Source of the DNA: Eubacteriales bacterium
GTDB taxonomy: Bacteria; Bacillota; Clostridia; Oscillospirales; CAG-272
Direction of reading: 5' to 3'
Assembly: GCA_045543375.1 (NCBI GenBank)
Contig: JAZQMI010000040.1
Coordinates: 1 to 47,536 of the forward strand
DNA length: 47,536 nucleotides
Positions within the stretch are counted from its first letter, which is position 1; each line of letters starts with the position of its first letter. This document shows, piece after piece, positions 1,544 to 43,577 of this stretch. A model generated the notes under the pieces. That model saw only the letters and a list, made by a program, of their open reading frames with translations. It searched no databases and was not told the DNA's origin. Position numbers and translations under genes: made by a program.

Positions 1544-1575
1544 GAGAAAATCTCCTTTTCTTTTCTATCCTTATA

Positions 1576-2595: not shown

Positions 2596-2644
2596 GAAAT
2601 ACTCCTCGTTGGTAATTTCGTCACTTTCGCTTTCTCAAATGCTG

Positions 2645-2741
2645 CCCTCTCACCCGCTTTGCAGGAGCTCTCCCTCGGGGAGAGCCTATCCCAAGCCTCT
2701 CCCGTGGGAGAGGTGTCGCGCCGCAGGCGGGACGGAGAGGG
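2645..2741. repeat. REP-like composite palindromic element
   Basis: Outer CCCTCTC/GAGAGGG enclosing GCTCTCCC-tcg-GGGAGAGC (2667-2685), CCTCTCCC-gt-GGGAGAGG (2696-2713) and an imperfect GC hairpin. Confidence 0.65.
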
Positions 2742-2783
2742 AAAAATTGCGGAAATCAAGCTTCTTTATGGCGTGATGCCAAA

Positions 2784-6517: not shown

Positions 6518-8182
6518 TTAAAGATTTTGCGGATCGATCTGATGGGGGATATCCTTGATCTCCTCCCAACGCTCGCCATCAAGGCGATAGCCCGTACCGG
6601 GACCCATATAAGTGTTAGGCGTATTGACTGCGCTGAGCACGCGGAAATCCTTGTCAAGGATAGCCGAGGTCTGCATGTAGTCGCCGATGACGCGCTGCTT
6701 GAGCATGCTCAGGATGCGCTCTGCCACGTCCTCGTGGCCCGTTTCCGCCAACGCGCGGCAGACGTCAATGCCCGTAATGCCTCGCTTGAGCATATCCTCG
6801 CAAGCGATCAGATCGGCAGGCACGTCGCGGTCGAGCGTATCGCGCGAGCCGTGGGCGTACACGACCGCCTCGACCTGCTCGTCCGTGATCTCGGTCAGAC
6901 CAAGATACCGGAATACCGACTGCACCGCCTTGGCTGCCTTGCGGCGGACGGCCAGCACGTCCTCCTCGCGAACGGGGCGTAAGCCGCCGTCCACCTGCAA
7001 ATCGCGCTGCAGCACGTTGTAATCGTCAAAGTCCTCGGCATCGAAGTTGGAGCCGGCGAACATGTTATCGTAGTTGGGCTCGGCCGCATAGCCCGAGAAA
7101 ATGAAGTCGGTACCGGGCATCAACTCAAGCAGCGTGCGCGCTGCGCGACGCATGGGCGAGTTGGAAAAGCTCTGGTCGTTACCCGACGCACATTCAAGAC
7201 CCAGCAGCGTGGCAGCCAGATTCTCACCCAGCACCTCGCGAATGCCCGACGGCACAGATGCCGGCACGGCGATACAACTGATGGCACCGTTTTGCGTGCC
7301 CTGCGCGCCCGCGCCCTTGGTCACGTACAAGCAGCGGCACTCCAGATACAGCATCGATTTCTTTTCGCTGTAACCCATAAGCACCTCCGAGCCCGCGCCC
7401 GATGTGAAGCGCACCTTGAGGCCGCGCGAGGCGTAAGCGGAGTTCAAAAATGCTTTGGAATAGGGCGTATCGTCGCCGTCGACGAACACCTTTTCAGTAC
7501 CGTAGACCGAAACGGTTTCCGCGTAAGTCGTCAAGCCGCGGATACCGAGATCAAGCTCGGTCGCCTCCTCGGACGAGCACTGGGTCAGCACGCCGGGGCG
7601 TCCGACCTGCGAGCCGATCAGAATCGCCATGGCCGAGAACGGCGCGTAACGGGCGATACCCATGGTCGTTTCCTCCTCGGCAAAGCCGCGGAGCGCGCCC
7701 TCTGCCGCATCGGCAGCGAGCTGGACGGGATCATCTTTTAAGTTGGTGATATGCGCCTGATTGGAGGGCTTGAGTCTTGCACGCATTTTCTGCATGCCCA
7801 TCATCAGCTCGACCACGTTGAGATAGCCGATGACCTCGGTCATCTTGGCGGGCGTGATGCCCGAACAGATCTTGAGGATCTCCTTTCTCGGCACGTGAAT
7901 ATCGACGATCTTGCGCGCGATCTCGAGCGAGGGCACCGACATGGACACGGGTGCACGCTGGAGATTGATGGCGTAATCGGCGATGAAGGTATCAATGAAA
8001 TCAAACTCGGCGCGCTTTTTGCCGTCCAGCTCGACCACCTTGCCGCCCACGATCTTGATCGAGGGGGTGGGATCATAGGGGCTGTGCATGGCGACAAAGC
8101 CCATCTCGGGCCATTCACCGATGTAGCCGTCCAGATTGACCGGACGAGCATCCAGCGCTTGGAATCTCTTGGATCGTTTCAT
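6518..8182 (-). CDS. pduC: B12-dependent diol/glycerol dehydratase large (alpha) subunit
   Basis: MKRSKRF...RPVN.DG, VELMM.MQKMRAR, YAET.SVYGTE.VF.DGDDTP, YDNMFAGSNFDAEDFDDYN; 554 aa. Confidence 0.97.
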   Translation of the reverse strand: MKRSKRFQALDARPVNLDGYIGEWPEMGFVAMHSPYDPTPSIKIVGGKVVELDGKKRAEFDFIDTFIADYAINLQRAPVSMSVPSLEIARKIVDIHVPRKEILKICSGITPAKMTEVIGYLNVVELMMGMQKMRARLKPSNQAHITNLKDDPVQLAADAAEGALRGFAEEETTMGIARYAPFSAMAILIGSQVGRPGVLTQCSSEEATELDLGIRGLTTYAETVSVYGTEKVFVDGDDTPYSKAFLNSAYASRGLKVRFTSGAGSEVLMGYSEKKSMLYLECRCLYVTKGAGAQGTQNGAISCIAVPASVPSGIREVLGENLAATLLGLECASGNDQSFSNSPMRRAARTLLELMPGTDFIFSGYAAEPNYDNMFAGSNFDAEDFDDYNVLQRDLQVDGGLRPVREEDVLAVRRKAAKAVQSVFRYLGLTEITDEQVEAVVYAHGSRDTLDRDVPADLIACEDMLKRGITGIDVCRALAETGHEDVAERILSMLKQRVIGDYMQTSAILDKDFRVLSAVNTPNTYMGPGTGYRLDGERWEEIKDIPHQIDPQNL

Positions 8183-8251
8183 ATCGCATTCCTTTCAAAA
8201 GGGCGTTGGGTACAGCGCACATTGCGCGAGTATCTATATTTAGTCTTATAT

Positions 8252-8280
8252 ATTATACTACATTTCTTGTCAAAAGTCAA
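8252..8280 (-). promoter_or_regulatory. Sigma-A promoter of dehydratase operon
   Basis: Minus strand TTGACT-N17-TATAAT. Confidence 0.75.
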
Positions 8281-8406
8281 TGCGTCGCGCATGAAAAAGT
8301 GCCCCAAAAACGTCATTTTGCTCCACGATTCATATACCTTGGTGCTTTCGCATATCATTTTAGGCAAATCACTCTATTTTTTATTAACGTGAAAGGAGTT
8401 GCCGCC

Positions 8407-8961
8407 ATGTCCGACCGCCGCGCTCTCACCCACCTGCCCGTCCTGCTTCTCTGCCTTGCCATCTGCCTTTTGGCAAGCTCTTGTGCGTCCCGCAATACAA
8501 CCACGGCGCTATCTCTGCTGCTCGACACGCTGGGCTCGCAAGCTACTCTGCCCGCGGGTGATATCTACCTCTTACCCAACTCGCCCTCGTTGCGTGCGCT
8601 CAAGACGACCGACACGCAGGGGCAGTCCGTTCGCGTAGCCGACACCGCGCTGCTGTCCGCTGCGTTCGGTGATGGCGGCGGCACGAGCGTGCCGAGCGTG
8701 CTGGAGAGCAGCGTCGACGACGGTGCCATGCACTTTGCTACCGCCGCCTCGCCATTTGAGATCATCGTGCTGCATTGCGTCAGCCGCGCCGACGCAGACA
8801 AGGTGGCAGCGCTGCTGCACGAACGGTTGGACATTTTGCGCCGCGAATATCCCGACGATGACAGCACGCTTGACCGTGCCGAGGTGGTCGTCATCGGTAA
8901 ATACGCCGTGCTGCTTGTGTGTAAGGACACCAAGACCGCCCTGCACGCTGTACATCAATAA
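8407..8961 (+). CDS. DUF4358-like lipoprotein
   Basis: ATG 8407 after GAAAGGAG; lipobox LASSC; EI.V..C, L..R.D and GKYAVL.V pattern. Confidence 0.65.
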   Translation: MSDRRALTHLPVLLLCLAICLLASSCASRNTTTALSLLLDTLGSQATLPAGDIYLLPNSPSLRALKTTDTQGQSVRVADTALLSAAFGDGGGTSVPSVLESSVDDGAMHFATAASPFEIIVLHCVSRADADKVAALLHERLDILRREYPDDDSTLDRAEVVVIGKYAVLLVCKDTKTALHAVHQ

Positions 8962-8992
8962 GTTTTACACCATAAAAATATTGCATTTCCTC

Positions 8993-9021
8993 TTTACTTT
9001 TGGAAGATATTATGCTATACT
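8993..9021 (+). promoter_or_regulatory. Sigma-A promoter (extended -10)
   Basis: TTTACT-N17-TATACT with TG at -15/-14. Confidence 0.55.
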
Positions 9022-9057
9022 GATGAAAACAAATTCTCCCAGGTAAAGGAGCTTATC

Positions 9058-10500
9058 ATGAAACCTTTTGACATGACCTTCCACCGCCAGTTTTCGATGT
9101 CCACCTACAAAAATCAAAAGCTGATGCTGGGCAAAATGACCTTTTGCAAGGATTTTCTCACCGCACCCGCAGGACGCACGGATCTTTATCCAGTGCTCAA
9201 CATGACCGACGGCACAAGCGAGCACATCGTGCGTGACCGCTACATGGTCAGCGGTTGCGTTTCCCGTATGTTCTGTCAGTTTTTTCCTTACGCCACCTAT
9301 GAGATGACCGCCCGTCTGACGAGCGGCAGCGTGGGATTTTCCTTCCACCTTTCGGACGCTGAGGCGACCGTAATGATGAGCAAGGATGGCATCGCGCTCG
9401 TCTGCGGTGAGCAAAACGAGTGCGCAGCACTGCCCGAGGGACTGGACGATACCGTCACCATGATCGTGAGCTGCCGCCCCGGCTTCTTTGATATTTTCTT
9501 CAAGCAGGACGGCGCAACGTTTTTCCATCACACCTTCGCCTGCTCCGCCTTTGACACCGCGCACGATTACAAGCGCTTCTCGCTTGGCTACGCCGCCGTT
9601 TGCGTGGACGGCTTGTGCGAGGTGCGTGAGGTGCTCGCCTACCTCGACAACGGCATTTCCATTGCCGATATGCGCCCCATTCGCTATGAAAACGGCGAGG
9701 TCATGGTTGAGAACGGCAAGGTATATCTCACCGTTTCTATCCGCATGCAGGTACGCATGTTCCAGGGCGTGCTCGCTTGGCTGCCCGGCACGGCGGAATT
9801 TGAGCTGGTCGGCGCCATCTTCTACGACGCAGGCGACGGGCTGTGGTGTGGCGACGTGGCTGCCTCCATTCTTTACCACCGTGCCGAGAAGCGCTGGCTG
9901 CTCTGGGTGTGCTCGTTCAATCACGGTCACATTCTCGCGCACGCTTCGTTCGAGGGCGACCCCCGTTTTGGCATCAACGTGATCGACGTCACGCTGGCCG
10001 ACCAGCACGAGGGCGAATACGATTACACGGCGTGGGCCACGCGCGCACACGACGAGGATCCCGATTTCTTTTACGACGAGCAGCGCGGCAAGTGGTACAT
10101 GGCCATTTGCCGGATCGACCAAACTCCCGGTCGCAGAAAAGCCTACCGCTACGCCTTCTTTGAGTCCGACCGTCCCTTTGACGGCTACACCTTTATCGGT
10201 AACGGCGTGGACGGCTCGGAAACGGGCGGCTCGTTCGTGCGCATCGACGGTGAGCAGTATTTCATCTGCGGCAACGAGAACGTCAACGACTACCGTATTT
10301 ACTCCAAGGACGGCATGCAAAATGCCAAATTTGACTTCCCCGACGGCGGTTTCCGCGGCTGGGGCACGCTGCTGCCCATCAAAAAAGGCAGCCGCACCCG
10401 TTATTTCTGGATCACGTTTGACCGTCACAACGGCAGCGACTACAACTGGAGCTACGGCAATCTGCACGGCTTTGAGGGCGTTCCCGACCATCAGGAATAA
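9058..10500 (+). CDS. Cytoplasmic protein with C-terminal five-bladed beta-propeller glycosidase-like (GH32/43-clan-like) domain
   Basis: AAGGAG RBS; IADMRP, EDPDFFYDE..GKWYMAIC, ETGGSF acidic blade motifs; no signal peptide. Confidence 0.55.
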   Translation: MKPFDMTFHRQFSMSTYKNQKLMLGKMTFCKDFLTAPAGRTDLYPVLNMTDGTSEHIVRDRYMVSGCVSRMFCQFFPYATYEMTARLTSGSVGFSFHLSDAEATVMMSKDGIALVCGEQNECAALPEGLDDTVTMIVSCRPGFFDIFFKQDGATFFHHTFACSAFDTAHDYKRFSLGYAAVCVDGLCEVREVLAYLDNGISIADMRPIRYENGEVMVENGKVYLTVSIRMQVRMFQGVLAWLPGTAEFELVGAIFYDAGDGLWCGDVAASILYHRAEKRWLLWVCSFNHGHILAHASFEGDPRFGINVIDVTLADQHEGEYDYTAWATRAHDEDPDFFYDEQRGKWYMAICRIDQTPGRRKAYRYAFFESDRPFDGYTFIGNGVDGSETGGSFVRIDGEQYFICGNENVNDYRIYSKDGMQNAKFDFPDGGFRGWGTLLPIKKGSRTRYFWITFDRHNGSDYNWSYGNLHGFEGVPDHQE

Positions 10501-30331: not shown

Positions 30332-33142
30332 TCAGTCCTCCAGATTGACAAGGCACTTGGCGCAAAGGAAACCGTCCTCGCTCTGTTTGCCTTCAGTCGA
30401 GTAGCTCCAGCAACGGTCGCACTTGCAGCCGTCGGCGCCCTCAACGAGCACGCCGATGCCCGACACCGTTTCGGTCAGCGCGCCCTCAACGGCCTTACCC
30501 TTCTCAAGCTTAACGCCCGAAACGATGAACACCGTCTTGAGCATATCGCCAAACGAAGACAACAGCTCGTACTGTGCGTCGTCCTCGGTGTAAACGGTCA
30601 GCTTGGCATCCAGCGACTTACCGATCTTCTTATCGGCTCTTGCGATCTCAAGCGCCTTCATGACGTCGTCACGCAGCTCGAACAAAGCATTGTAGCGATC
30701 AGCCTCGCTGCCCAGCTCGTAGCATTCGCAAGCGGCGGGCATACGGTTGAGGAATACGCTCTCGGTCTTATCGCTCGCAAGGTGCGGCATGCACTGCCAG
30801 ATCTCCTCTGCCGTAAAGGACAGAAGCGGTGCCATCAGTCTTACCATGGCGGAAAGCGTCAGGTACATGGCCGTCTGTGCGCTGCGGCGCGCGGGAGAGC
30901 AGGCGCGCTCGGTGTAAACGCGATCCTTGGTGATATCCACGTAAAGCTTGGACAGCTCGGTGGTGCAGAAATTGGTCAGATCGTGATAAATGGTATGGAA
31001 GCAATAGCCCTCATAACCCTTCATGGCGCGGCGGATGAGATCGTTCAATCTCGACAGCAGCCAGCGGTCGATCTCCTGCATGTCCTTGACGTCGACCATA
31101 TCCTTGTTGGGATCGAAGTCGTTCAGGTTTGCCAGAATGATACGCGAGGTGTTGCGGATCTTACGGTAAGCCTCGGAGAGCTGCTTGAAGATCAGATCGG
31201 AGCAGCGGACGTCCACCTGATAGTCGGCAGACGCGACCCAAAGGCGCACAAGGTCAGCACCGTACTTGGCGACCATATCCTGCGGATCGACGCCGTTACC
31301 GAGCGACTTGTGCATGGCGCGGCCTTCACCGTCAACGACCCAACCATGGGTCAGAACGGTCTTGAAGGGTGCCGTCGTGCCGCCCTTGGCACCGATGGCC
31401 GTCAGCAGCGATGCCTGGAACCAACCGCGGTACTGGTCTGCGCCCTCAAGGTACAGATCTGCCGGCCAGGACTGCTCGGGCCAGCCCTTGCCGCCCTCGT
31501 CCTCGAGCACGGCAAAGTGGGTAGAGCCGGAGTCGAACCAGCCGTCCAGCGTGTTCTGCTCCTTGATAAAGTGCGTCTTGCCGCACTTGGGGCAGACGTA
31601 GCCCTCGGGCAGAAGATCCTTGGCATCCATGGCGAACCAGCAGTTGGAGCCGTGTTCCTTGAACATATCGGACACCTTGGCGATGGTTTCTGCGTTGCAG
31701 ATGGTTTCCTTACAATCCTCGCAATAGAAGACGGGAATGGGCAGACCCCAATGACGCTGACGCGAGATGCACCAGTCGGCTCTCTCACCCAGCATCTGCT
31801 TCATGCGCTCGCCGCCCCAGGCGGGCAGCCAGCTCACGTCGTCGCAGGCCTTGACGGCATCGGCGCGGAAGGCGTCGACCGAGCAGAACCACTGCGGCGT
31901 GGCGCGGAAGATGATGGGAGATTTACATCTCCAGCAATGGGGATATTCGTGCTCGAATTCCTTGGAGGCGAACAGTGCGCCGCTCTCGGTCAGGTCGGCC
32001 AGAATGGCAGCGTTGGACTCGTCGTAGTACATACCGGCAAACTTGCCTGCGTCCTCGGTCTGATAGCCGCGATCGTCGACGGGCACGATGATGTCAATGC
32101 CGTAGCGTTTGCAGGTCTGGTAGTCGTCGGCACCAAAGCCGGGTGCGGTGTGGACACAGCCCGTACCGCTGTCCATGGTGACGTAATCAGCCATGAGCAC
32201 GACACTCTCGCGGTCAAGGAAGGGGTGCTGCGTCTTGATGAATTCGAGCTCCTTGCCCTGCATGGTGGCAACAACCTTGAAGTTCTCGACACCGCCCTCG
32301 AGCATGGTCTTGGTGACCAGCGCCTCGGCGATGACGTAATACTCATCGTTCGCCTTAACGACGGCATAGCTCTCGACGGGGTTGAGCGCGATGGCAAGGT
32401 TGCCGGGCAGCGTCCAGGTGGTCGTCGTCCAGATGATGAAATAAGTCTTGGAAAGATCGCAGACATTTGCCAGCTTTCCCATATCATCCTTGACGCGGAA
32501 CTTGACGTAGATAGACGTACACTTGTCGGTCTTGTACTCAATCTCGGCCTCGGCCAGAGCCGTTTCATCCTTGGGGCACCAGTAAACGGGCTTCAGGCCC
32601 TTATAGATGTAGCCCTTACGGAACATCTCGCCGAACACCTTGACCTCACGCGCCTCAAAGGCGGGGTCCATGGTGGTGTAGGGGTTGTTCCAATCAGCGA
32701 CAAGACCCAGACGCTTCATCTGACCGCGCTGGATATCAATGAAATCCTGCGCGAAAGCGTGGCAGGCGCTGCGGAATTCGGGAATGCTCATGGCCTTACG
32801 GTTGAGCTTGTTTTTCTTGATGATGGCCGACTCGATGGGCATGCCGTGGTTGTCCCAACCGGGAACAAAGGGCACGCGATATCCCATCATGGAGCGCGAC
32901 TTGTTGATAAAGTCCTTGAGCGTCTTATTCAAGGCGTGACCCATGTGGATGTTGCCGTTCGAGAAGGGAGGGCCGTCGTGCAGCACGAAGGTGGGGCAGT
33001 CGGCGTTGTTCTCAAGCATTTTGTTGTAAAGATCGATCGACTCCCAGTATTCGAGCATCTTGGGCTCGCGCGTGGGAAGATTTGCCCGCATTTCAAACGA
33101 TGTTGTGGGCAGGTTGAGTGTGGATGTGTAATCCTTTGCCAT
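30332..33142 (-). CDS. ileS: Isoleucyl-tRNA synthetase (type 1)
   Basis: LHDGPP, HMGH, DWCISRQR.WG, EG.DQYRGWF, AMHKS, C-terminal CDRCW...CAKC; Ile T-box upstream. Confidence 0.98.
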   Translation of the reverse strand: MAKDYTSTLNLPTTSFEMRANLPTREPKMLEYWESIDLYNKMLENNADCPTFVLHDGPPFSNGNIHMGHALNKTLKDFINKSRSMMGYRVPFVPGWDNHGMPIESAIIKKNKLNRKAMSIPEFRSACHAFAQDFIDIQRGQMKRLGLVADWNNPYTTMDPAFEAREVKVFGEMFRKGYIYKGLKPVYWCPKDETALAEAEIEYKTDKCTSIYVKFRVKDDMGKLANVCDLSKTYFIIWTTTTWTLPGNLAIALNPVESYAVVKANDEYYVIAEALVTKTMLEGGVENFKVVATMQGKELEFIKTQHPFLDRESVVLMADYVTMDSGTGCVHTAPGFGADDYQTCKRYGIDIIVPVDDRGYQTEDAGKFAGMYYDESNAAILADLTESGALFASKEFEHEYPHCWRCKSPIIFRATPQWFCSVDAFRADAVKACDDVSWLPAWGGERMKQMLGERADWCISRQRHWGLPIPVFYCEDCKETICNAETIAKVSDMFKEHGSNCWFAMDAKDLLPEGYVCPKCGKTHFIKEQNTLDGWFDSGSTHFAVLEDEGGKGWPEQSWPADLYLEGADQYRGWFQASLLTAIGAKGGTTAPFKTVLTHGWVVDGEGRAMHKSLGNGVDPQDMVAKYGADLVRLWVASADYQVDVRCSDLIFKQLSEAYRKIRNTSRIILANLNDFDPNKDMVDVKDMQEIDRWLLSRLNDLIRRAMKGYEGYCFHTIYHDLTNFCTTELSKLYVDITKDRVYTERACSPARRSAQTAMYLTLSAMVRLMAPLLSFTAEEIWQCMPHLASDKTESVFLNRMPAACECYELGSEADRYNALFELRDDVMKALEIARADKKIGKSLDAKLTVYTEDDAQYELLSSFGDMLKTVFIVSGVKLEKGKAVEGALTETVSGIGVLVEGADGCKCDRCWSYSTEGKQSEDGFLCAKCLVNLED

Positions 33143-33185
33143 GTTGGTGTTTCTCCTTTTCGTTTGTTTTTGACCTCGCGGCGGG

Positions 33186-33474
33186 AAACAAAACACGCCC
33201 CACAGCCGCATGCGACTATGAGACGGAACAAGTAAATTCCGCGGTACCACTCACGTTGCGTCCCATGAAGGGAACGCCTCTCACGGCTGCGCCGAGCGGC
33301 ACAGCACCCGACCTTAACGCGGTCAAACGGACGCGACTACTCGGACAAAAACTCTCGCCTTGCCGTTCGCCCCGTCAGCTCCGAAGGGATACGCAACACC
33401 GTCCGCCGCGCCGTCACACCAACCCTGCGCTCTCTGTAGACTTCGTAGTGTCTTGCTTCTTCATCATAACTTTT
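33186..33474 (-). ncRNA. T-box riboswitch leader, Ile specifier
   Basis: AGAGA and GGTGTGA stem-I motifs, specifier ATC (33388-33390), T-box AACGTGAGTGGTACCGCG (33240-33257), terminator 33186-33225. Confidence 0.92.
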
Positions 33475-33480
33475 CATCAT

Positions 33481-33509
33481 ATTATAGCATAGATTTTTTT
33501 GCTTGTCAA
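33481..33509 (-). promoter_or_regulatory. Sigma-A promoter of ileS leader
   Basis: Minus strand TTGACA-N17-TATAAT with TG. Confidence 0.85.
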
Positions 33510-33518
33510 CACATACAC

Positions 33519-33550
33519 AAAAAAAGAACCACCGCACGGTGGTTCTTTTT
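33519..33550 (-). terminator. Intrinsic terminator of the GRE operon
   Basis: AAAAAGAACCACC / GGTGGTTCTTTTT inverted repeat directly after the GRE stop. Confidence 0.85.
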
Positions 33551-33552
33551 CT

Positions 33553-35754
33553 TTATACCTGCACTCTTGCGATCATTTCGTCCTGAAGCTCGCGCGGCAA
33601 GTCGACGAACACGGCCGACACGCCCCAAAGGCGGACGATCAGGTCGCGGTAGGCGTCCGGATTTTGCTGTGCGGCACGCAATGCCTCGACGCTGAGCACG
33701 TTGGGCTGGTGTTGAAGCCCACCCTTGGCAAAATAGGTCGTGAGCAGTTGGCGGAAGATGGCCTCACCCTCGTTGCCCTCAAACACCGAGGCGTAATAGT
33801 TCACCATGACGCACATATTCCACTGGCACAGCCGTCCGTCGATCTTGGCGGCTGACGACAGCGTAGCCGTTGCGCCCTCACTTGCCGTGCCGCTCTCGGG
33901 TGCCAGCGTGACCGCCACGGGTGTGCCCGCATGGCGTCCCTCGGGCGTCGCCATCAGCTTTTGACCCGTCGGCACGGGGTGCGGCTGATGAATACCGCCC
34001 AAAATCACGCCGCCGTCGCTCGTGCGATATTTGGTCAGCTCCCTCAAGCAGAAGTCAAACAGATCGCAAGCGATCGCGTCGACGGCATCGTCGTCGTTGC
34101 CCCACTTGGGTGCGTTCCACAAGCGTCGGCGCAACAGCTCCTGTCCCTCGCCTTGGTAGTCCGCCTCGCAAGCAGCCACCACCTCGGCAAGCGTTGCCTG
34201 TCCTTTATCATACACGACGTGCTTGATAGCGGCAAGCGAGTTGACCGCCTCGGTCGCCGTACCGAAAAAGACACCGCGTGCGCGAATGGGATAGGGCTCG
34301 TAGATCATATCACACGCCACCTCCAGCGTGCCGTGATACAGCGCGCTGAGCAGCGGCAAGGGCGACATGGGGCTTTTGTTGCGGCAGGCGGGCTGAATAC
34401 CACGACGAAGTCCTTCAAAATACTCGTCGTAGCGCCCGTCGCGGTACAGGTATAGATTGGCCTGTGCGCGATTGTGCGTTTCAATGCCCTGCGCAATATT
34501 TTGCGCCACGTGAGCCTTGTAATCCTCCAGCAGCGCGTCAAAATCCGCATATGGTTTTCCCTGCTTCAAAAGCTCCATGAGCAAATTGGCGAGCATGGGG
34601 TTGCAGACGTAGAAAAAGTCGCCCTTGCCGGGAACGTTGACGTCCTGACAAAGATCAAAGCCGTAGCTGCGCGCGTCGGCCTCATTCAAGCCCGCCGCGC
34701 TCAGATTGGCGACAAAGGCCTCGTCGTTGTAGTACGACACGAAATTACAACCACTCACGGTCAGCTTTGATGCCATCTCCAAAAACTCGGGTGGGTTGCA
34801 AGGGTGCAGGCGCAGATTGAACTCGGGCTCGGGCAATCGGACGCGGTCGATGGCGCGAAGAAACATCATAGTGACCTCACTGACCGCGTTCTCGCCACTT
34901 GGCAGCACGCCGCCAAGTGTAACGACAAGCTGCGAGGAATATTTGTTCAGATAGGTCGTGTTCAGATCGGCCTGATCGTACATTTTCAGCAAAAGACAGC
35001 ACAAAAGCTCCTGTGCCATCTCGTGCGGCGTATCCTTCAGATAGGGGGCAAGTATCACATCAAGGCGCCCGTAGCAAATGAATTCAAAGCTTTCGATGAT
35101 GCAGCCAAGGTGTCCGAACCAAAGTAGCTGCACGGCCTCGTAAAAGGTGTCGGGGGCATCCGTTGCGATCTTACGGCAAATGCGCGCGATCTCGCCAAGG
35201 CGTGCCATCTCGTGCTGCTCCGTACTCTCCCCCACCAGACGCTCCGCCTCGTCGGCGTAGCGCAAAATAAGCGTTTGCAGCCCCTCATAAGCAATGCGCA
35301 CCGACGACAAAAACTCGCGCTGTTCCCGCGTGCAGCCCTCTCGCTCTTCGCGTGCGCGCACGTCGTCAAGAATACCGCCGATGCCGCGCGAGAGAAGAAT
35401 GGACAGGTCGGGCGTGTAGTGCGTTTTGTTGGTATAGCTCTGGTCGACACCAAAGCGCTTGATCTCATCCGCGCGAAGATAGGGGATCTTGGTCGGCAGG
35501 TGATAATCAAAGATGCTGTGTCCGTCGAGATTGCTCTCGTGCGGCGTAAAATAAGTGCGCGTACCCACGATCAGCTCGCGCACGCCGATGTACAGCGGCA
35601 TACGCGCAAAAATGAGTGAAAGTGCCATGGCCTTGCGTTCGGCAATGCTCAAAGGCAAGGTCGATACGTCAAGATCGTTCGGCAACGGCGCGCGCTTGCA
35701 TTTATTGGCACCCGACACCGTCATCTCGCGTAGAAAATCAATTCTGTCGCTCAT
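33553..35754 (-). CDS. Glycyl radical enzyme (PFL-like superfamily) of unknown function
   Basis: ELIVG, P.TFYEAVQL.WF, GRLD, TLGG, YYND, PKWGNDD, ATPEGR.AG.P, Q.NV, P..Y.DLIVR..G.S..FV.L; 733 aa from ATG after AAGGAG; adjacent activase. Confidence 0.92.
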   Translation of the reverse strand: MSDRIDFLREMTVSGANKCKRAPLPNDLDVSTLPLSIAERKAMALSLIFARMPLYIGVRELIVGTRTYFTPHESNLDGHSIFDYHLPTKIPYLRADEIKRFGVDQSYTNKTHYTPDLSILLSRGIGGILDDVRAREEREGCTREQREFLSSVRIAYEGLQTLILRYADEAERLVGESTEQHEMARLGEIARICRKIATDAPDTFYEAVQLLWFGHLGCIIESFEFICYGRLDVILAPYLKDTPHEMAQELLCCLLLKMYDQADLNTTYLNKYSSQLVVTLGGVLPSGENAVSEVTMMFLRAIDRVRLPEPEFNLRLHPCNPPEFLEMASKLTVSGCNFVSYYNDEAFVANLSAAGLNEADARSYGFDLCQDVNVPGKGDFFYVCNPMLANLLMELLKQGKPYADFDALLEDYKAHVAQNIAQGIETHNRAQANLYLYRDGRYDEYFEGLRRGIQPACRNKSPMSPLPLLSALYHGTLEVACDMIYEPYPIRARGVFFGTATEAVNSLAAIKHVVYDKGQATLAEVVAACEADYQGEGQELLRRRLWNAPKWGNDDDAVDAIACDLFDFCLRELTKYRTSDGGVILGGIHQPHPVPTGQKLMATPEGRHAGTPVAVTLAPESGTASEGATATLSSAAKIDGRLCQWNMCVMVNYYASVFEGNEGEAIFRQLLTTYFAKGGLQHQPNVLSVEALRAAQQNPDAYRDLIVRLWGVSAVFVDLPRELQDEMIARVQV

Positions 35755-35771
35755 GATACACGCTCCTTTCT

Positions 35772-36590
35772 TTACTGCTTTTTGAAAAGATACTCGTAAC
35801 GCCCGATTGCCTTGAGTGCTCTTGAGGCATCGCCGACGTAGGTGCAATCAAGGCCGAGCGTTTCATATTTACTCTTACCCAGCGTATGATACGGCATGAG
35901 TGTCACGCGCTCGACGCTCGGCAATCCGTTCACAAAATCTGCGATGCGGCGCATCTCGTCCCCGTCGTCGTTAAAGCCGGGAATGACGGGCACGCGCACC
36001 CACATGGGTTTACCAAGCGAGGACAGCCGTCTTGCGTTGTCCAAGATCAGCGCGTTGTCCGCGCCGATCCAAGCGCGATGACGCGCAGCGTCCATGCACT
36101 TGATATCATACAGATAAAGGTCGCACACCTCCAAGGTTTTTTCAAACGCCGACCACGGCACAGCACCCGAGGTATCGATCGCCGTATGTACGCCCTCGGC
36201 CTTGATGGTACGCAACAGCTCGGTCGCAAAATCGGCTTGCAGCAAACACTCGCCGCCTGACAGCGTGACGCCGCCGTCCGCGCCATAATAAGCGCGGTCG
36301 CGCAGTACCAAGTGCACCGCTGCCTCAAGCGTCATACGCTCGCCGCACACCGACAGTGCCCCCACGGGGCACGCATCCGCCGCTTGGAGCGACGAACGGT
36401 CACCGCAACGTCCGCAACCCATGCATTTTTCTTTAAAAAATTGCAATTCGGGCGCAGCAGACAGCCCTTCGGGGTTATGACACCAGGGGCAGCGCAAGGG
36501 ACAACCCTTGAAAAAGACGGTCGTGCGAATGCCCGGTCCGTCGTGCACCGAAAAGCGTTGCACGCGAAAAACAGTAGCGGTACTGCTCAT
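35772..36590 (-). CDS. Glycyl-radical enzyme activating enzyme (radical SAM)
   Basis: HDGPGIRTTVFFKGCPLRCPWCHNPE, GGVTLSGGE, DTSG, YDIK, R.PVIPGFND, PYH.LG..KY. Confidence 0.95.
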   Translation of the reverse strand: MSSTATVFRVQRFSVHDGPGIRTTVFFKGCPLRCPWCHNPEGLSAAPELQFFKEKCMGCGRCGDRSSLQAADACPVGALSVCGERMTLEAAVHLVLRDRAYYGADGGVTLSGGECLLQADFATELLRTIKAEGVHTAIDTSGAVPWSAFEKTLEVCDLYLYDIKCMDAARHRAWIGADNALILDNARRLSSLGKPMWVRVPVIPGFNDDGDEMRRIADFVNGLPSVERVTLMPYHTLGKSKYETLGLDCTYVGDASRALKAIGRYEYLFKKQ

Positions 36591-36603
36591 CAAACTGCTC
36601 CTC

Positions 36604-37074
36604 TCAAAGGTTTTTTGCTCGCTCCTTGACTGCCGCCACAAAATCGGGCAGCTCATGCTCGTAGCTTCCGCTCATATAAGGGCTGGCCATGATAAAATCG
36701 GCCGTCGCGCGATTGTTGGCGATGGGAATGTCATACACCTGCGCGATGCGGAGTAGTGCCTTGACGTCGGGATCGTGGGGCTGTGCGGTCAACGGGTCGG
36801 AGAAGAAAATGACCACGTCCACCCTTCCCTCCACGATACGCGCGCCGATCTGCTGATCACCGCCCAGAGGACCGCTGTTAAATCCGCGCACGGGCAAGCC
36901 TGTATGCTCGGCGACCATTTTGGCCGTCGTGCCCGTACCGCAAAGAAAATGATGCTCCAGGATCTTTTTGTTTTTGAGGCACCAGTCGATCAGTTCTCTC
37001 TTTTTATTGTCGTGGGCAATGAGGGCAATGTTCTTTTGCCCCTCCATTACCACCTTGACCATTTGCTCTGCCAT
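36604..37074 (-). CDS. mgsA: Methylglyoxal synthase
   Basis: IALIAHDNKK, GTGTT, SGPLGGDQQIGA, DPL...PHDPDVKALLR, A.NRATAD. Confidence 0.97.
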   Translation of the reverse strand: MAEQMVKVVMEGQKNIALIAHDNKKRELIDWCLKNKKILEHHFLCGTGTTAKMVAEHTGLPVRGFNSGPLGGDQQIGARIVEGRVDVVIFFSDPLTAQPHDPDVKALLRIAQVYDIPIANNRATADFIMASPYMSGSYEHELPDFVAAVKERAKNL

Positions 37075-37726: not shown

Positions 37727-40423
37727 TTATCTGTATCTATCCTTTTTTCTCATATAGAAAATAATAACAAGAAGAATGATAATGATGCAGATCAGAAGGA
37801 TCAGCCAGAACAGCCACATGCAGGGACGCTCCGGCTCTTCGGGTACAACAGGCTCACCAGGTTCGTCGGGCGTCTGCGTAGGCTCAAGCTGAGGGATTTC
37901 CTCAGTTCTGCTTGCACTTCCGCAGGTGGTGCAGGTGTAGGTCTTGACACCGGCAGCCTCCTCGGTCGCCTCGACCGTTACCTCACCCTCGTTCCAGGTG
38001 TGCTCAAGCGCGGGAATGACCTCGGTCTTGACGTAAGCACAGACCGAGCAGGTGTAGGTCTTGGTGCCCTCAACGCCGCAAGCTGCCGGCGTGATCTCCT
38101 CTACCCAGGCGTGTGCCTGCTCGCCGATGCGATCTCCACAGCTGCATGCGATCCAGTGGTGCGTGTCGTTGACCGACCACTGAGCCGAGGATACCGTCTG
38201 GTGCGTGTGTTCAAGCACGGGGATCTCCTCCGTCTTGGTCTCGCGGCAAACGGTACAGATATGCGTCAGAACGCCGGGTGTCTGCTCGGTGGCTGCCGTC
38301 GTGACCGTGCCGGCATCCCAGGTGTGATCGCTCAAGGGGATCTCCTCGGTCTTGGTATAGGCGCAGGCGGTACAGGTCAGCTTCATCGTACCCTTGCTCT
38401 CACAGGTTGCTGCAAGCACAACCTCCTGCTCCCAATCGTGTCCGTTCACGTTGGCGCGTTCGCCGCAAAGGCACTCGTACCAATGCTCAGTATCACTATG
38501 CTTCCACGTGTTGATATAAACGTGCACGTGGCTCAACGAGGGGGTCTCCACCGTCTTGGTGTCACCGCAGTCCAGGCAGGTCAGCAGCTTTTCACCGGTA
38601 GAGCTCTCGGTCGCAGGCTTGGTGACGACACCGTCGTCCCACTTGTGCGCGGTGTACTCCCATTCCAGGCAATCCATGCACTGGTGCTTTTGCTCGTTCT
38701 CGTCTACGCTCGACCACTCACCGTAGTTGTGAGGTGCCTTGCTGCCGTACTCGCTGTGACAAGCATCGCAAATTGCCTTTGCCGAACAGGTGGCCTGTCC
38801 ACCGGCATGCTGCTCGCGTCCGTCCGTTGCGTTACAGCCATCGCGCAGACACTCGTAGTAATGGTAGTTGACGTTGGAGGAATACGTCGTTGCGAAATCG
38901 TGACCCAGCTCGGTGCCGTAGCTGAACGTCTCGTCGCCCTTGTGACCGCATGCGCAGCTCTTATAATACAGTGCTGCCTGCGTGCAGTTTGCCTCGGACT
39001 TCAGATATTCGGGCTTAGCGACCTCTTGGTCGTGAACGTGATCGGCAAGCGCACCGTAGGATTGTCCGCAAGCGTCACACACCGCCTGTGCAGAGCAGGT
39101 CGCCTGACCGCCCGCATGCGCGCCGCGACCGTCGGTCACGGTACAGCCGTCACGCAGGCACTCGTAGTAGTGCTCGGTATCGTTGGAGGTGTAAGTCTTG
39201 GAGAAATCGTGACCACGTGCCGTGCCGAACGTAAAGGTTTCGCTCGTTGTCTCACCGCACACGCAGCTCTTGTAATATACGGCCGCGTGCTCGCAATCCG
39301 CAGCACTGACCAGGAAGGCGTCGTCTACGACTTCCTTATAATCGTGAGGCAGCGGAGAGCCGACCGTAAACGTGTTGGTATCTGCCAGACCACAAGCCGA
39401 GCAGCTAAAGTAGTAGCTGGCTGCGTTTTGGCAATCAGCCGCACTTGCCAGATATTCGTCGGCCACGACCTGCGCATCAAACTCGTGAGTCAGCGGCGCA
39501 CCGACCGTGAACGTGTTGGTGTCTGCCAGACCGCAATCCGGGCAGCTGTAATAGTAGGTAGCGGCGTTGTAGCAATCCGCGGCGCTTGCCAGATAGGCTT
39601 CCGTCGCGATTTCGGCGTCAAAGGTGTGAGGCTTGCTCTCTCCGTCGCCGCATCCCGAGCAGACCTTCTCATGCTCGCCCGTTTCTCCGTTCGGAGTCCA
39701 GTTACCGTAATTATGAGGCTCGCTCTCTACGCCGTGGCAGACAGTGCACTCGCGCTCGTGCTTTTGCGAGCCCTTATAGATCCAACCGTCATACTCACCC
39801 ACATAGGTGTGAGGAACCGGTGCAAGCAGCTCACCGCCGCTCGTGTAGGTGTCACAATCGGGGCAATAGATGCCGGCTGCATTGCCCTGCCCCTGGCAGG
39901 TCGAGGGCTCGGCGTCCTTGTAGTAAGCGTTGGCGTGGGGGCAAGTGACGGTCAGCGTTGCCGTCGTCGTGGTCGTGCAGGAAACGGCGGCACCGGTGGC
40001 ATCCTGCAGTCCAGTCATTGCACAACTGATCTGGGTCTGTTCGAGTGCCGCAGTATCCAACACCCTGAAGGTTACCGTCAGAATGGTACCGTTTACATTG
40101 CCGGAAGCGGGAAAACCGTTCATACCGAGGAAAGCAAATACAGCCAATCCGGTAGACGGATCGAAGGATGCCATCATGGTGTTAACGTGAACGGTGCCAC
40201 TCACGGGCTCGAGTACGTTCGGATCGTAAATCATTTCAATTCCACCGGACTTCAGGTCGGGAGCGCCGGAAAGTGTGACCGTAACCGTCACGGTTTCTCC
40301 GCGGCCGGCACCGGTCTTATCAACGCTGACATCAGCCGTTGCCGCAGAGTTGGCAAAGGCAGGAAAAGCCGTCAAAGCAAGCACAAGCATTACGATAACA
40401 CTTGCGAGTAAAAATTTTTTCAT
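37727..40423 (-). CDS. Membrane-anchored cohesin-domain protein with Cys/His-rich repetitive stalk
   Basis: Signal peptide (AFA); cohesin pattern GETVTVTV.L...IYDPNVLE...GTIL.VTF.V.D.A; ~19 H..C/CxxC modules; C-terminal TM plus RKKDRYR. Confidence 0.82.
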   Translation of the reverse strand: MKKFLLASVIVMLVLALTAFPAFANSAATADVSVDKTGAGRGETVTVTVTLSGAPDLKSGGIEMIYDPNVLEPVSGTVHVNTMMASFDPSTGLAVFAFLGMNGFPASGNVNGTILTVTFRVLDTAALEQTQISCAMTGLQDATGAAVSCTTTTTATLTVTCPHANAYYKDAEPSTCQGQGNAAGIYCPDCDTYTSGGELLAPVPHTYVGEYDGWIYKGSQKHERECTVCHGVESEPHNYGNWTPNGETGEHEKVCSGCGDGESKPHTFDAEIATEAYLASAADCYNAATYYYSCPDCGLADTNTFTVGAPLTHEFDAQVVADEYLASAADCQNAASYYFSCSACGLADTNTFTVGSPLPHDYKEVVDDAFLVSAADCEHAAVYYKSCVCGETTSETFTFGTARGHDFSKTYTSNDTEHYYECLRDGCTVTDGRGAHAGGQATCSAQAVCDACGQSYGALADHVHDQEVAKPEYLKSEANCTQAALYYKSCACGHKGDETFSYGTELGHDFATTYSSNVNYHYYECLRDGCNATDGREQHAGGQATCSAKAICDACHSEYGSKAPHNYGEWSSVDENEQKHQCMDCLEWEYTAHKWDDGVVTKPATESSTGEKLLTCLDCGDTKTVETPSLSHVHVYINTWKHSDTEHWYECLCGERANVNGHDWEQEVVLAATCESKGTMKLTCTACAYTKTEEIPLSDHTWDAGTVTTAATEQTPGVLTHICTVCRETKTEEIPVLEHTHQTVSSAQWSVNDTHHWIACSCGDRIGEQAHAWVEEITPAACGVEGTKTYTCSVCAYVKTEVIPALEHTWNEGEVTVEATEEAAGVKTYTCTTCGSASRTEEIPQLEPTQTPDEPGEPVVPEEPERPCMWLFWLILLICIIIILLVIIFYMRKKDRYR

Positions 40424-40470
40424 ATTGGTCTCCTTCGTATATGTTTTTATATCGCACACATTTTAACGCG

Positions 40471-43400
40471 TTACGTCAGCGGATATTGCGCGGGGAAGAA
40501 CGTGTGGAAAAGCAGGTAGATCGCATCGTCCATCGTCACATCGCCATCGCGATCGTAATCACAAGGCTGCTCAACGGGATACTGCGACGGGAAGATGGTA
40601 TAGAACAGCAGATAAATAGCATCTTCCATGCTCACTCCCTCCACGCCGTCGATGTCACCGGGAACGTAGGGCGTGATCTCCACAAACTCTCTGCCGTATT
40701 TCTCGGCGTAAGCCTGTGCGGTCGAGTCGGCGTAGCCGTAGATCACGGCAGTCGCGCTGATGGTATCCTCGGCATCGAAGATATCGACCTCATTCGAACG
40801 GATGGTGATCTTGGTCAAGCCGTCGCAATCGGCAAAAGCAGACTCGTCGATGCTTTCCACAGCCTCACTGATCGTGATCTCCTCAAGAGCATCGCATCCG
40901 TAAAATGCGCCGTATCCGATTGCCGTCACAGCGTCGGGAATCACGATGGAGGTCAGGCAGCTATAGGCAAACGCCGCATCGCCGATCACCGTCACGGTGC
41001 CGTTATTGGGAATCACGCTCGACTGACAACCTGCGATCAGCGTAGCCGTTGCGACTTCGATGATGCAATTCTGGGCGGAGTAGTAAACGGGGTTGCCCGC
41101 TGCTACGGTCAGGGTGGACAAGTTTTGAGCGCAAAGCGCGGCAAGGCCGATGTGGGTAACGCTCTTGGGAAGAGTAAAGGAGGTCAGTCCGGTTTCGAAG
41201 AAGGCACCTTCGCCGATAGAAACGATCGAACCGGGAAGAATGACCTCGGTCAGCTCAGCCAGACCCTCGAACGCGTAATCGCCGATCTCGGTAACGGGCA
41301 AGGTGAAGTAAGTTGCGGGAACGGTAACCTTCGTTTCCGTACCCGTGTAGCCCGTCAGCACGTACGCCGTACCCTGGGCGTTCAGCGCAAATTCCAGACC
41401 GTCAAGTGCTGCAAACGTGCGGTTGTACTTGGTCGCGTATTTCTCTGCGGTCGAACCAAGGTAACCGTAGATTGCCACGCCGGACGGGATGGTATTTTTG
41501 CTGTCCTCCAGAATAACCGTAGAGGAAAGCAGTGTAATACTTTGCAGCGTTACGCCATCGGTAATGGCCGTTGTGGTGGTGGCATTGGTGGGGGCCGCCT
41601 GCATGCCGCGAGGAACAAGAATGTCGGGAGGAAGCTCAACGGTGCCACCGCCGCCCTGCGAGTTGGTCGCAAACGCGCTCTTGGTCACGCGCACAACGGG
41701 AAGGCCGGCATAGACCTCGGGAACGATCACGTGCACGTCCGTGCCCTCGTAGCCCGTGACGCTGTACTGCGTGCCCGCAGCGTTGAGCGTGTAGACGAGG
41801 CCCTCAGTGCCCAGCGTAAGATCGGGCTGCTCGGGTTCGGGTTCGGGCTCGGGCTCCAACGCCTCGAAGACTCTGCCGTTCATTTCAGCGTACGTCTGAG
41901 CCGTTGAGCCCATGTAGCCGTGTATGGTGGCACTTGCCGAAATCGTATTGGCACTTTGATCGATATCCGCATGCGGGGACAAGAACGTGATGCTTTGGAG
42001 CTCGCTACAGAAGAAGGCCATCAGATCGACGCTCTTCACCTTTGCGGGAATGACGATCTCGGTAATGGCAGTAGAGGCGAATGCATTCATTCCGATCACG
42101 TTAAGGCTTTCGGGAAGGGTGACGCTTGCAAGATTCATACAGTTTGCAAATGCGTTGTCTCCGACGTGCGTCACGCCCTCGGGAATGACGACCGATTCGA
42201 TCTCGTAATCTTCGGAAAAAGCAGAGTCGCCAATGGAGGTCACGCTGCCGTCCGCAGGGATCTCAAAACTGCCGTATCCAAGCAGCAACATACCGCTCTT
42301 GTTTTCAATCAGACAGTTGCCGACGACGGTGTATGCCGAGTTTTCAGCGTCGACCGTAAAGCTCGTCAAAAAGTCCATACCCTTAAAGGCCAGTTCACCG
42401 ATCTCGGTCACGCTGGCGGGAAGATGAACGCTTTCGATGCCGCAGCCCGAGAAGGCTCGGATACCAATGCTCTCCACGCCCTCGGGAAGCGTGATCTCAG
42501 TGATCGCGGAATTGCAGAAAAATGCGTAAGCGCCGATGCGCTTGATGCTTCCGTCCGTCGGAATCACGCAGTCGGGCGTGCCCAGAAGCAGCGTTTGGCT
42601 GTCCAGCTCGATCAGGCAACCGTCCGTGACGGCGTAGGCGGTATTGCCCTCAGCCACCGTCAAGGTTGTCAGCTCCTTGCAGGCATAGAAGGCGCCCTCT
42701 GCAATCTTGACGACACCGCTCGGGATCTCAACGCTTTCGAGCCCGTAGCAGGAATCAAACGCGTAGCAAAGAATGATCCGAGTATCCTCGTGAATCGTAA
42801 GGGAACCGGTCACCTCCGCGGGGGCCAACACCAACGCATGGTACGGATTTGATTCGTTTCCAAGATACAGCGAGCCCTCATAAGTATGGAAGCCCAACGA
42901 CGCGCAATCGTCAAACGCATGCTCCTCAATGTCCGTCATGGTGTTGGGGATCGAGATATCCGTCAGTGCTTCACAGCCGCAGAAGGCATATGCGCCGATG
43001 GACGTCACGCCCTCGGGGATCACAAGGGAAGACAACTGATCGCAGCTGTAGAAGGCATACGCGCCAATGCTCTTGACGCTGCCCGGAATTTCAACACTTT
43101 CAACGTTGGAAATGCTGAAAGCCCAATCGTCGATGGCCGTTACGGGCAGGTCCTGATAAGTAGCGGGAATGACAAGCTCGGTCAAGGAACCGTAATAGCT
43201 CTTGACGACGTAGCTCTGCTCGTCGTCACCGAGCACGTAGGCGATGCCCTGCTCGTCGGTCAATATCTCCTCCTGCTCGGGCGGTGCGGGCGTATCCCCG
43301 GCGTTTCCGCCCTCTCCTTGATCGGGAGCGGTACCGGTATTATCGTTCGCGCCAGCATCACCCTCGGGGGTATCCTGCGCGTTGCCCGGAGGTGTCGGAG

Positions 43401-43533
43401 CAACGGGTTGCGTTGTGTCGTTCGCGTCGGGCTGTGTGTCCTGGGCGCTGACACCAAGTGTAAGGCTTGAGGTAAGTAGCAATGCAAGCGCCAAAAGGAC
43501 GCTACAGAGCTTTCGGCTATTTCTGCTTTTCAT
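40471..43533 (-). CDS. Secreted BspA-type leucine-rich repeat protein with C-terminal dockerin
   Basis: Signal peptide; many IP.xVTxIGxxAF repeats; C-terminal duplicated GDIDG..GVSMEDAIYLL / DYDRDGDVTMDDAIYLL. Confidence 0.88.
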   Translation of the reverse strand: MKSRNSRKLCSVLLALALLLTSSLTLGVSAQDTQPDANDTTQPVAPTPPGNAQDTPEGDAGANDNTGTAPDQGEGGNAGDTPAPPEQEEILTDEQGIAYVLGDDEQSYVVKSYYGSLTELVIPATYQDLPVTAIDDWAFSISNVESVEIPGSVKSIGAYAFYSCDQLSSLVIPEGVTSIGAYAFCGCEALTDISIPNTMTDIEEHAFDDCASLGFHTYEGSLYLGNESNPYHALVLAPAEVTGSLTIHEDTRIILCYAFDSCYGLESVEIPSGVVKIAEGAFYACKELTTLTVAEGNTAYAVTDGCLIELDSQTLLLGTPDCVIPTDGSIKRIGAYAFFCNSAITEITLPEGVESIGIRAFSGCGIESVHLPASVTEIGELAFKGMDFLTSFTVDAENSAYTVVGNCLIENKSGMLLLGYGSFEIPADGSVTSIGDSAFSEDYEIESVVIPEGVTHVGDNAFANCMNLASVTLPESLNVIGMNAFASTAITEIVIPAKVKSVDLMAFFCSELQSITFLSPHADIDQSANTISASATIHGYMGSTAQTYAEMNGRVFEALEPEPEPEPEQPDLTLGTEGLVYTLNAAGTQYSVTGYEGTDVHVIVPEVYAGLPVVRVTKSAFATNSQGGGGTVELPPDILVPRGMQAAPTNATTTTAITDGVTLQSITLLSSTVILEDSKNTIPSGVAIYGYLGSTAEKYATKYNRTFAALDGLEFALNAQGTAYVLTGYTGTETKVTVPATYFTLPVTEIGDYAFEGLAELTEVILPGSIVSIGEGAFFETGLTSFTLPKSVTHIGLAALCAQNLSTLTVAAGNPVYYSAQNCIIEVATATLIAGCQSSVIPNNGTVTVIGDAAFAYSCLTSIVIPDAVTAIGYGAFYGCDALEEITISEAVESIDESAFADCDGLTKITIRSNEVDIFDAEDTISATAVIYGYADSTAQAYAEKYGREFVEITPYVPGDIDGVEGVSMEDAIYLLFYTIFPSQYPVEQPCDYDRDGDVTMDDAIYLLFHTFFPAQYPLT

Positions 43534-43577
43534 ATCTTTGCCTTTCCTTTCCGTGGTTATATAGTTATACAAATTAT

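Follow-up and report, generated by a model that had tools for sequence, protein, structure and literature searches.

The 47,536-nucleotide (nt) stretch of DNA analysed here (the window; contig JAZQMI010000040.1 of the Eubacteriales bacterium assembly GCA_045543375.1) encodes an oxygen-sensitive glycyl radical enzyme (GRE) on its minus strand at positions 33553–35754. Judged from its sequence, this enzyme is very probably a functional member of a distinct, uncharacterised GRE clade, which we call the CQD clade after the residues Cys369-Gln370-Asp371 of its cysteine loop. The open reading frame (ORF) is free of stop codons over 733 amino acids (protein P0001), and its ATG at 35754 follows an AAAGGAG ribosome-binding site located 8 nt upstream. 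The translation matches the Pfam domains PFL-like (PF02901, 5.5e-90) and Gly_radical (PF01228, 2.2e-17), and by these domains and its modelled fold the protein belongs to the PFL-like division of the GRE superfamily. A first-pass annotation had described an intact GRE scaffold with an aberrant cysteine loop, an aberrant glycine loop and an unusual IHQPHP strand. With a stop-free frame, both Pfam domains and a confident structural model, the scaffold is indeed intact, and all three stretches are present in the translation: YGFDLCQDV (residues 364–372; 34639–34665, minus strand), RLWGVS (residues 708–713; 33616–33633, minus strand) and IHQPHP (residues 588–593; 33976–33993, minus strand), the last at the end of the modelled barrel strand 583–588. 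The codons assigned to the catalytic Cys369 (34648–34650) and the radical Gly711 (33622–33624) were also placed correctly.

We aligned the protein with HMMER to the B12-independent glycerol dehydratase (GD) of C. butyricum (1r8w). Residues C369-Q370-D371 fell on C433-V434-E435 of GD, and H112 (codon 35419–35421, minus strand) fell on His164, the proposed general acid. The suggestion that an aspartate (Asp371, codon 34642–34644) takes the place of the CxE motif's glutamate thus agrees with the alignment. A review of June 2026 (PMC13450708) describes the roles of C433, E435 and H164 in GD (section 5.6.1) and reports that CxE is retained in all six C-O eliminases, in CutC, in the C-S lyases and in the three isomerases, hence in every characterised eliminase and isomerase. 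It also gives the GRE fingerprint as RVxG[FWY]x6-8[FL]x4Qx2[IV]x2R. The glycine-radical stretch of our protein, RLWGVSAVFVDLPRELQDEMIAR, keeps the Arg, the Gly, the Leu, the Gln and the last Arg of this fingerprint but deviates at three positions (V is replaced by L, [FWY] by V and [IV] by M), and the deviations are conserved throughout the family. The cysteine loop carries a single cysteine (L-C-Q), as opposed to the two adjacent cysteines of PFL and TdcE, and Gly711 is present and invariant, unlike the Ala, Ser or Thr that marks the radical-storage residue of aminoacyl radical enzymes (AARE).

The shortness of the protein had been remarked upon before; it is real and is due to the N-terminus, which is about 52 residues shorter than that of GD (His112 versus His164). 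In contrast, an insertion that had been postulated after the cysteine loop was not found. Residues 112–731 align end to end with residues 155–772 of the Archaeoglobus protein 2f3o (A. fulgidus; 620 versus 618 residues), and the stretch that fails to align with 1r8w is only 11 residues longer than its counterpart (122 versus 111). This stretch is, by these comparisons, a divergent helical segment and no sizeable insert.

The first-pass annotation had proposed motif conservation among homologues as a test of its claim. A word-indexed protein search, in which 8000 candidates were scored, returned 344 proteins at E <= 1e-10. The best 120 of these matches are 707–738 amino acids long and 57–96% identical to the GRE; where they are named, they are called 'hypothetical protein' (seven rows) or 'formate C-acetyltransferase' (one row), and the named rows come from metagenome-assembled genomes (MAGs) of Clostridia, Oscillospiraceae or Ruminococcaceae. 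In an alignment of 26 sequences covering this identity range (A1), F366, D367, C369, Q370 and D371 of the cysteine loop and W710, G711, V712 and S713 of the glycine loop are invariant. The same holds for H112, for H589, Q590, H592 and P593 of the IHQPHP stretch, for Q681, H682, Q683, P684 and N685, and for the polar residues N646, N652 and Y653. The catalytic C369 is invariant in alignment A2 as well.

We then scanned one genome for each of 185,579 species and obtained 64 loci, nearly all of them from gut, rumen or faecal MAGs. Fifty-five GRE ORFs were called at these loci. All 49 that cover the cysteine loop contain [LV]CQD, and 54 of the 55 contain R[LM]WGV, the sole exception being a fragment that lacks this region. 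The odd motifs are, by this comparison, conserved features of the family and not marks of decay. A scan of metagenome contigs added 23 loci, mostly short or duplicate, among which no new kinase or DeoC contexts were found. In the ESM Atlas we encountered only generic 'formate C-acetyltransferase family' clusters.

To reach greater distances, we ran HMMER without filters against 1.84 billion representatives of 50%-identity clusters and recovered 5023 GRE-like proteins. From the best 150 we aligned the 136 that have at least 650 amino acids with the query (137 rows). CQD occurs in 13 of these 136 full-length representatives, at 58–35% identity and always together with R[LMV]WG and the equivalent of His112; the representatives that rank next contain D-G-C-x-E with RVWGFS. 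In a FastTree phylogeny of 143 rows, which carries local supports only and has no characterised enzymes among its rows, a clade of 14 rows (100% support, stem 0.45) comprises the query, 12 of the 13 CQD representatives and the representative P0160. The remaining CQD representative, P0138, lies outside this clade and pairs with a CxE sequence. The clade is nested in a 36-row group of short GREs with 97% support, whose other members contain D-G-C-x-E. That is, the phylogeny that had been named as a further check returns a separate clade, in a tree built without characterised enzymes.

The placement relative to characterised enzymes rests on NCBIfam cut-offs, PDB matches and cysteine-loop motifs. 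No NCBIfam model attains its cut-off with the protein, so the statement that it matches no characterised GRE holds. The best match is to the subfamily model TIGR01774 (PFL2/glycerol dehydratase) with 326.3 bits against a cut-off of 678.2. The equivalog models for HypD, CutC, HpsG/HpfG, PflD-type enzymes, HPAD and IAD score 145–244 bits against cut-offs of 1000–1150, and with PFL included (TIGR01255, 63 bits against 994) the ranges widen to 63–244 and 994–1150. The best PDB sequence matches are GD and 1,2-propanediol dehydratase (PD) enzymes (top e-value 1.2e-74, 255 bits). Our literature search returned nothing on the CQD family within PMC and bioRxiv, to which it was limited; subscription-only papers or supplementary similarity-network tables could list the cluster.

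Structure modelling, likewise among the checks proposed earlier, gave a GRE fold. The AlphaFold2 model, built from a 60-sequence alignment, is confident throughout, with a mean predicted local distance difference test score (pLDDT) of 94.7 and a predicted TM-score (pTM) of 0.93. Foldseek aligned it to solved GREs at TM-scores of 0.76–0.83 and 22–26% identity. GD, the 1,2-propanediol dehydratases, A. fulgidus PFL2, PflD, CutC, HypD and YbiW all fall within 0.79–0.83 at 22–26% identity and none stands out; the nearest folds are those of the glycerol and 1,2-propanediol dehydratases.

Directly upstream of the GRE lies a radical SAM enzyme (35772–36590, minus strand) that scores 314.8 bits with the GRE-activase model TIGR02494 (cut-off 174) and is the cognate activating enzyme. 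Its likely start is the ATG at 36590, behind a GAGGAG ribosome-binding site, and 17 nt separate its end from the start of the GRE. We counted neighbours in the related loci by hidden Markov models run over all ORFs. Of the 39 loci where the GRE is full-length and 1 kb or more is available upstream, 36 have an activase immediately before the GRE on the same strand. The exceptions are L007, where an 858-amino-acid ORF lies in between (L007:5313–7995), and L017 and L032, which have no activase in the locus. The activase is the only constant partner of the GRE, and we propose that, as far as gene order and domain content indicate, the pair constitutes a functional two-gene cassette. Core-family activases (L001–L062) have a shortened ferredoxin-like insert with four cysteines (CxxCxxC...CP), which suggests one auxiliary cluster; the activases of the distant members L043, L046, L049, L051 and L052 and those of the paralogues on contigs C32 and C44 of the same genome have eight. 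The 11-kb locus L017 contains two full-length family members in opposite orientation (about 1000–3200 on the minus strand and 7995–10184 on the plus strand).

Because the cysteine, the equivalent of GD His164 and an acid at Cys+2 are kept, and because dehydratases are the nearest folds, we consider eliminase- or isomerase-type chemistry, with the chances about evenly divided for and against it. In such a scheme, the activase would take a hydrogen atom from Gly711, and the glycyl radical would generate a thiyl radical on Cys369 that in turn attacks a hydroxylated substrate by taking a hydrogen atom from it. Asp371 would act in the role of the CxE glutamate and deprotonate the substrate hydroxyl, while His112 would protonate the neighbouring leaving group. 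Overall, the substrate would be converted to a carbonyl compound, either by 1,2-elimination (dehydration) or by a related isomerisation. More speculatively, the substrate could be a carbohydrate-derived polyol or a deoxy-sugar precursor, whose product might pass to an aldolase of the DeoC type and to an iron alcohol dehydrogenase.

This last suggestion derives from the gene neighbourhoods, which vary outside the activase-GRE pair. Their most telling arrangement, a tight same-strand array of GntR regulator, DeoC, FGGY kinase, iron alcohol dehydrogenase, activase and GRE, is present in L001, L015 and L031, and without the dehydrogenase in L016; in the remnant locus L054 (Merdimmobilis hominis An559), the FGGY kinase directly abuts a 339-amino-acid C-terminal GRE fragment (L054:7977–8996). 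DeoC scores above its equivalog cut-off (195 versus 117 bits), and the FGGY kinase is xylulokinase-like (334 bits versus a cut-off of 380). Loci with kinase and DeoC are scattered over the GRE tree so that at least five changes are required, and their kinases are mutually 55–77% identical, a pattern consistent with an association that is old and has been lost repeatedly. The occurrence of the GntR-DeoC-kinase operon in four divergent lineages hints at a sugar or polyol substrate. In two distant loci, L043 and L051, genes for a sugar ABC transporter (XylF-like binding protein, ATPase and permease) immediately precede the activase and the GRE, and L043 also has a sensor set of binding protein, histidine kinase and AraC-type regulator together with a kinase of another FGGY subfamily.

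A specific form of this proposal, which we hold only tentatively and think unlikely to be correct in detail, is that the enzymes of the CQD clade are radical dehydratases that convert sugars or sugar alcohols, such as ribitol and D-arabitol or the phosphates of these, to a 2-deoxy-aldose. The FGGY kinase would then phosphorylate the 2-deoxy-aldose, DeoC would cleave the phosphate to glyceraldehyde-3-phosphate and acetaldehyde, and the iron alcohol dehydrogenase would reduce the acetaldehyde. If true, deoxyribose-type sugars could be formed by glycyl-radical chemistry independently of ribonucleotide reductase, and gut anaerobes would have a redox-neutral means of fermenting polyols.

Several observations weigh against an eliminase or isomerase that acts on such sugars. 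In the active site, the CxE motif of GRE 1,2-eliminases and isomerases is missing, C369-Q370-D371 standing in its place, and GD His281 and Ser282 correspond to E224 and F225, of which E224 is not conserved. In the neighbourhoods, the kinase occurs at only six of the 32 loci for which 4.5 kb or more is available upstream, and the genomes of L002, L003, L009 and L040 contain kinases that are only 31–36% identical. No such kinase was detected at E < 1e-10 in the genome from which the window derives, which is 81% complete. Because the GntR/kinase/DeoC module stands alone on another contig in the L027 genome, it may handle deoxy-sugars by itself and simply accompany the cassette elsewhere. Furthermore, the other recurrent neighbours, namely GH78 rhamnosidases (five loci), GH29 fucosidases (four), sulfatases (three) and adenine deaminases (five), indicate differing directions.

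The strongest competing explanation is a chemistry outside the eliminase/isomerase scheme, such as C-C cleavage or formation or a redox-neutral rearrangement, in which case another mechanism would account for the CQD loop and for the valine that follows the radical glycine; the first-pass annotation had spoken of a likely new GRE class. The CxE that, according to the review, every characterised eliminase and isomerase retains is replaced here by an invariant CQD, and the glycine fingerprint given there is altered at three positions (PMC13450708). The clade has a long stem, and the reduced four-cysteine insert of the core-family activases is a co-varying peculiarity. However, aspartate is a conservative replacement for glutamate, the histidine general acid is retained and the clade is nested among CxE enzymes. 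The second cysteine of PFL is absent, and the cassette does not encode Fe-S small subunits of the X-succinate synthase or HPAD type, nor did recurrent clusters of small ORFs emerge among neighbour ORFs of at least 80 amino acids. We regard a departure of this kind as improbable, with perhaps one case in a handful going its way. A variant 1,2-eliminase or isomerase is the more economical reading because the clade nests among CxE GREs, because Cys, His and acid are kept and because the closest structures are diol dehydratases. Of the proposed new class, the distinct and uncharacterised clade therefore stands, while new chemistry is not supported.

The diol dehydratases themselves raise a narrower question. 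GD and the PD enzymes (5i2g, 9rco) share the ten-stranded barrel fold of GREs with our protein (TM 0.81–0.83), have the cysteine, the histidine (GD His164, here H112) and the acid at Cys+2 at the same positions, and, like the CQD GREs, each have a dedicated TIGR02494-type activase. The CQD enzyme could thus be a divergent or non-orthologous C3 diol dehydratase for 1,2-propanediol or glycerol, with a rebuilt active site, that serves together with an alcohol dehydrogenase as an electron sink. In sequence as in fold it comes closest to GD (1r8w) and to the PD enzymes (9rco, 5i2g), and in L001, L015 and L031 the activase is immediately preceded by an iron alcohol dehydrogenase. Rhamnose and fucose yield 1,2-propanediol, and the GH78 rhamnosidases at five loci and GH29 fucosidases at four would be in keeping with this. 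A two-gene cassette would also suffice if generic dehydrogenases handled the aldehyde, and an AdhE-like gene is present on contig C45 of the same genome. Yet identity to GD and PD is only 24–26%, the cysteine loop reads CQD where theirs reads GCVE, with leucine instead of glycine before the cysteine, and the glycine loop reads RLWGVS where theirs reads RVAGYS. The His281-Ser282 pair of GD is replaced along with the glutamate, and no recurrent microcompartment shell genes were seen among neighbour ORFs of at least 80 amino acids. The invariant polar residues H589, Q590, H592, N646, N652, Y653 and H682 would suggest a different, possibly larger polar substrate. We judge a C3 diol dehydratase to be still less probable than a departure from eliminase and isomerase chemistry.

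That the gene is decaying, its odd motifs having arisen by random drift, is hardly credible and is effectively refuted because the motifs are conserved: some relatives are broken or truncated (L004, L054, L056, L058) and P0160 lacks both Cys and Gly, but our gene has an open frame, a good ribosome-binding site, a confident model and an intact adjoining activase, and the motifs are invariant across homologues of 57–96% identity and kept down to 35%.

With respect to the damaged relatives, P0160 (734 amino acids) has DILAN in place of the catalytic cysteine and VYYKNQF in place of the glycine loop and is placed inside the CQD clade at 99% support; it may represent either a paralogue without catalytic function or an assembly error. 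The GRE of L004 (L004:8001–10202) is split into pieces of 257 and 473 amino acids. L056 (L056:7971–8606) and L058 (L058:7920–8519) contain C-terminal pieces of about 200 amino acids with the glycine loop, inside long contigs, and these may be either gene remnants or, in the manner of GrcA, spare glycyl-radical domains.

A variant eliminase or isomerase also invites comparison with the YbiW/PflD isomerases, which act on 1,5-anhydroglucitol-6-phosphate and 1,5-anhydromannitol-6-phosphate (8id7, 8id0, 8yjo) and match the model at TM 0.81–0.82 with 23–24% identity. They are linked to PTS systems, whereas the CQD GREs have ABC transporters and an FGGY kinase nearby. They keep CxE, and our protein scores 244 bits with PRK09983 against a cut-off of 1109. 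According to section 5.7 of the review, the YbiW/PflD enzymes are carbohydrate-linked and their product goes to an aldolase (PMC13450708), a parallel to the DeoC and sugar-kinase neighbours of CQD GREs. The nearest relatives on the tree are short GREs with RVWGFS and D-G-C-x-E (for example P0142–P0156, and the paralogue on contig C117 of the same genome), none of which is characterised. These resemble the CQD clade in their length of about 700–750 amino acids, in the tryptophan before the radical glycine and in the aspartate two residues before the cysteine, but differ by CxE and an aromatic residue after the glycine. PFL belongs to the same superfamily and likewise forms a self-sufficient pair of activase and enzyme, but with a Cys-Cys pair instead of the single cysteine.

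GREs drive gut reactions relevant to the host, including trimethylamine, p-cresol, H2S and hydroxyproline metabolism, and to our knowledge each newly assigned GRE clade has revealed a new pathway. Among uncultured Clostridia of the gut and rumen, the CQD clade is widespread (64 loci in the 185,579 species genomes; more than 120 sequence clusters), and it is annotated merely as 'hypothetical protein' or generically. Uncharacterised clades are common, and whole GRE clades remain without validation according to section 7 of the review (PMC13450708). Thus, the CQD clade is one of many unassigned GRE clades, distinguished by a systematic Glu-to-Asp exchange, an altered glycine fingerprint and, in several lineages, a suggestive sugar-catabolic operon. 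It is the first conserved group in our analysis in which the eliminase glutamate is systematically aspartate. Once its substrate is assigned, one could test to what extent the mechanism requires the CxE rule; the assignment might also reveal a hitherto unknown carbohydrate or polyol fermentation route and would offer a handle on five other unassigned short GREs of the same small genome.

In this genome the cassette occupies approximately 33523–36603 (minus strand), as delimited by blastn synteny with two genomes of the same genus that have the same flanks without the cassette and by the junction sequences. The GRE was not found at E <= 1e-100 in 12 genomes of the same genus (58–99% complete) or in 24 other genera of the same family; of 24 further genomes, drawn from the order's other families, one contains it at 56% identity. 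Upstream lies a methylglyoxal synthase-like gene (mgsA, Pfam MGS; 36604–37074, minus strand), whose stop is 13 nt from the activase ATG and which is outside the conserved unit of the family. In the congeners G011 and G015 the orthologous mgsA (88–91% identity) is located directly beside the T-box leader of ileS, without a cassette. Window segments 37674–36617 and 33522–28037 are contiguous in these two genomes, where 530 nt and 90 nt separate them, and a homologous terminator hairpin follows mgsA. The contiguous flanks and the hairpin argue that the 3.1-kb activase-GRE pair was inserted between mgsA and its terminator; a precise loss elsewhere would be less parsimonious. The cassette would then be transcribed from the mgsA promoter, and mgsA is probably the promoter donor for the pair. 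We also considered mgsA as a functional partner and rejected it, since the adjacency is found only in this genome and the mgsA genes of the congeners lack the cassette.

Downstream, a GC-rich hairpin with flanking A and T runs (33524–33552), homologous to the one after mgsA in G015, abuts the GRE stop codon. It is followed by the T-box leader of ileS (33216–33509, minus strand; Rfam 94.8 bits, gathering score 93), which a perfect sigma-70 promoter (TTGACA-17-TATAAT with a TG extension) precedes. Promoter and T-box control ileS (30332–33250) and set the downstream limit of the GRE operon. An Rfam scan of the whole window for a riboswitch clue returned this T-box only.

Apart from the two close mgsA orthologues, matches of 48–50% identity to the window gene occur in several congeners. 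Matches of 36–41% were found in 11 of the 12 congeners, and none was found in the 58%-complete G009. The genome of the window itself (G000) has a second methylglyoxal synthase-like gene (G000:C69:6850–7200) that is 39% identical to 36604–37074.

This 1.8-Mb genome (81% complete) encodes seven PFL-like GREs (loci L065–L072 and the CQD enzyme). The others are located at C122:1176–3542, C24:4676–6811, C44:3754–5832, C41:19524–21728, C117:7086–9149 and C32:5001–7211. The true PFL is the one on C122 (TIGR01255, 1145 bits versus 994). The five further short GREs (687–736 amino acids) have the cysteine loops GCWE, GCYE, GCYE, ACWE and GCHW, and none reaches any NCBIfam cut-off. An activase ORF adjoins the GREs on C32, C41, C44 and C117, and none was detected beside that on C24.

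At the related loci L009, L011, L015, L018 and L042, an adenine deaminase (Adenine_deam_C and Amidohydro_1) begins 3–24 nt downstream of the GRE, with no apparent link to it. A peptide-type ABC transporter follows in four of these five loci, the contig of L018 ending first, and L009, L011 and L015 also share an upstream GH13 gene. Further upstream of mgsA in the window, two large surface-type proteins are encoded on the minus strand: a 910-amino-acid protein that begins with a cohesin domain, continues with many Cys-rich repeats and ends in a membrane anchor (37727–40459), and a BspA-type leucine-rich-repeat protein of 1033 amino acids (40471–43572).

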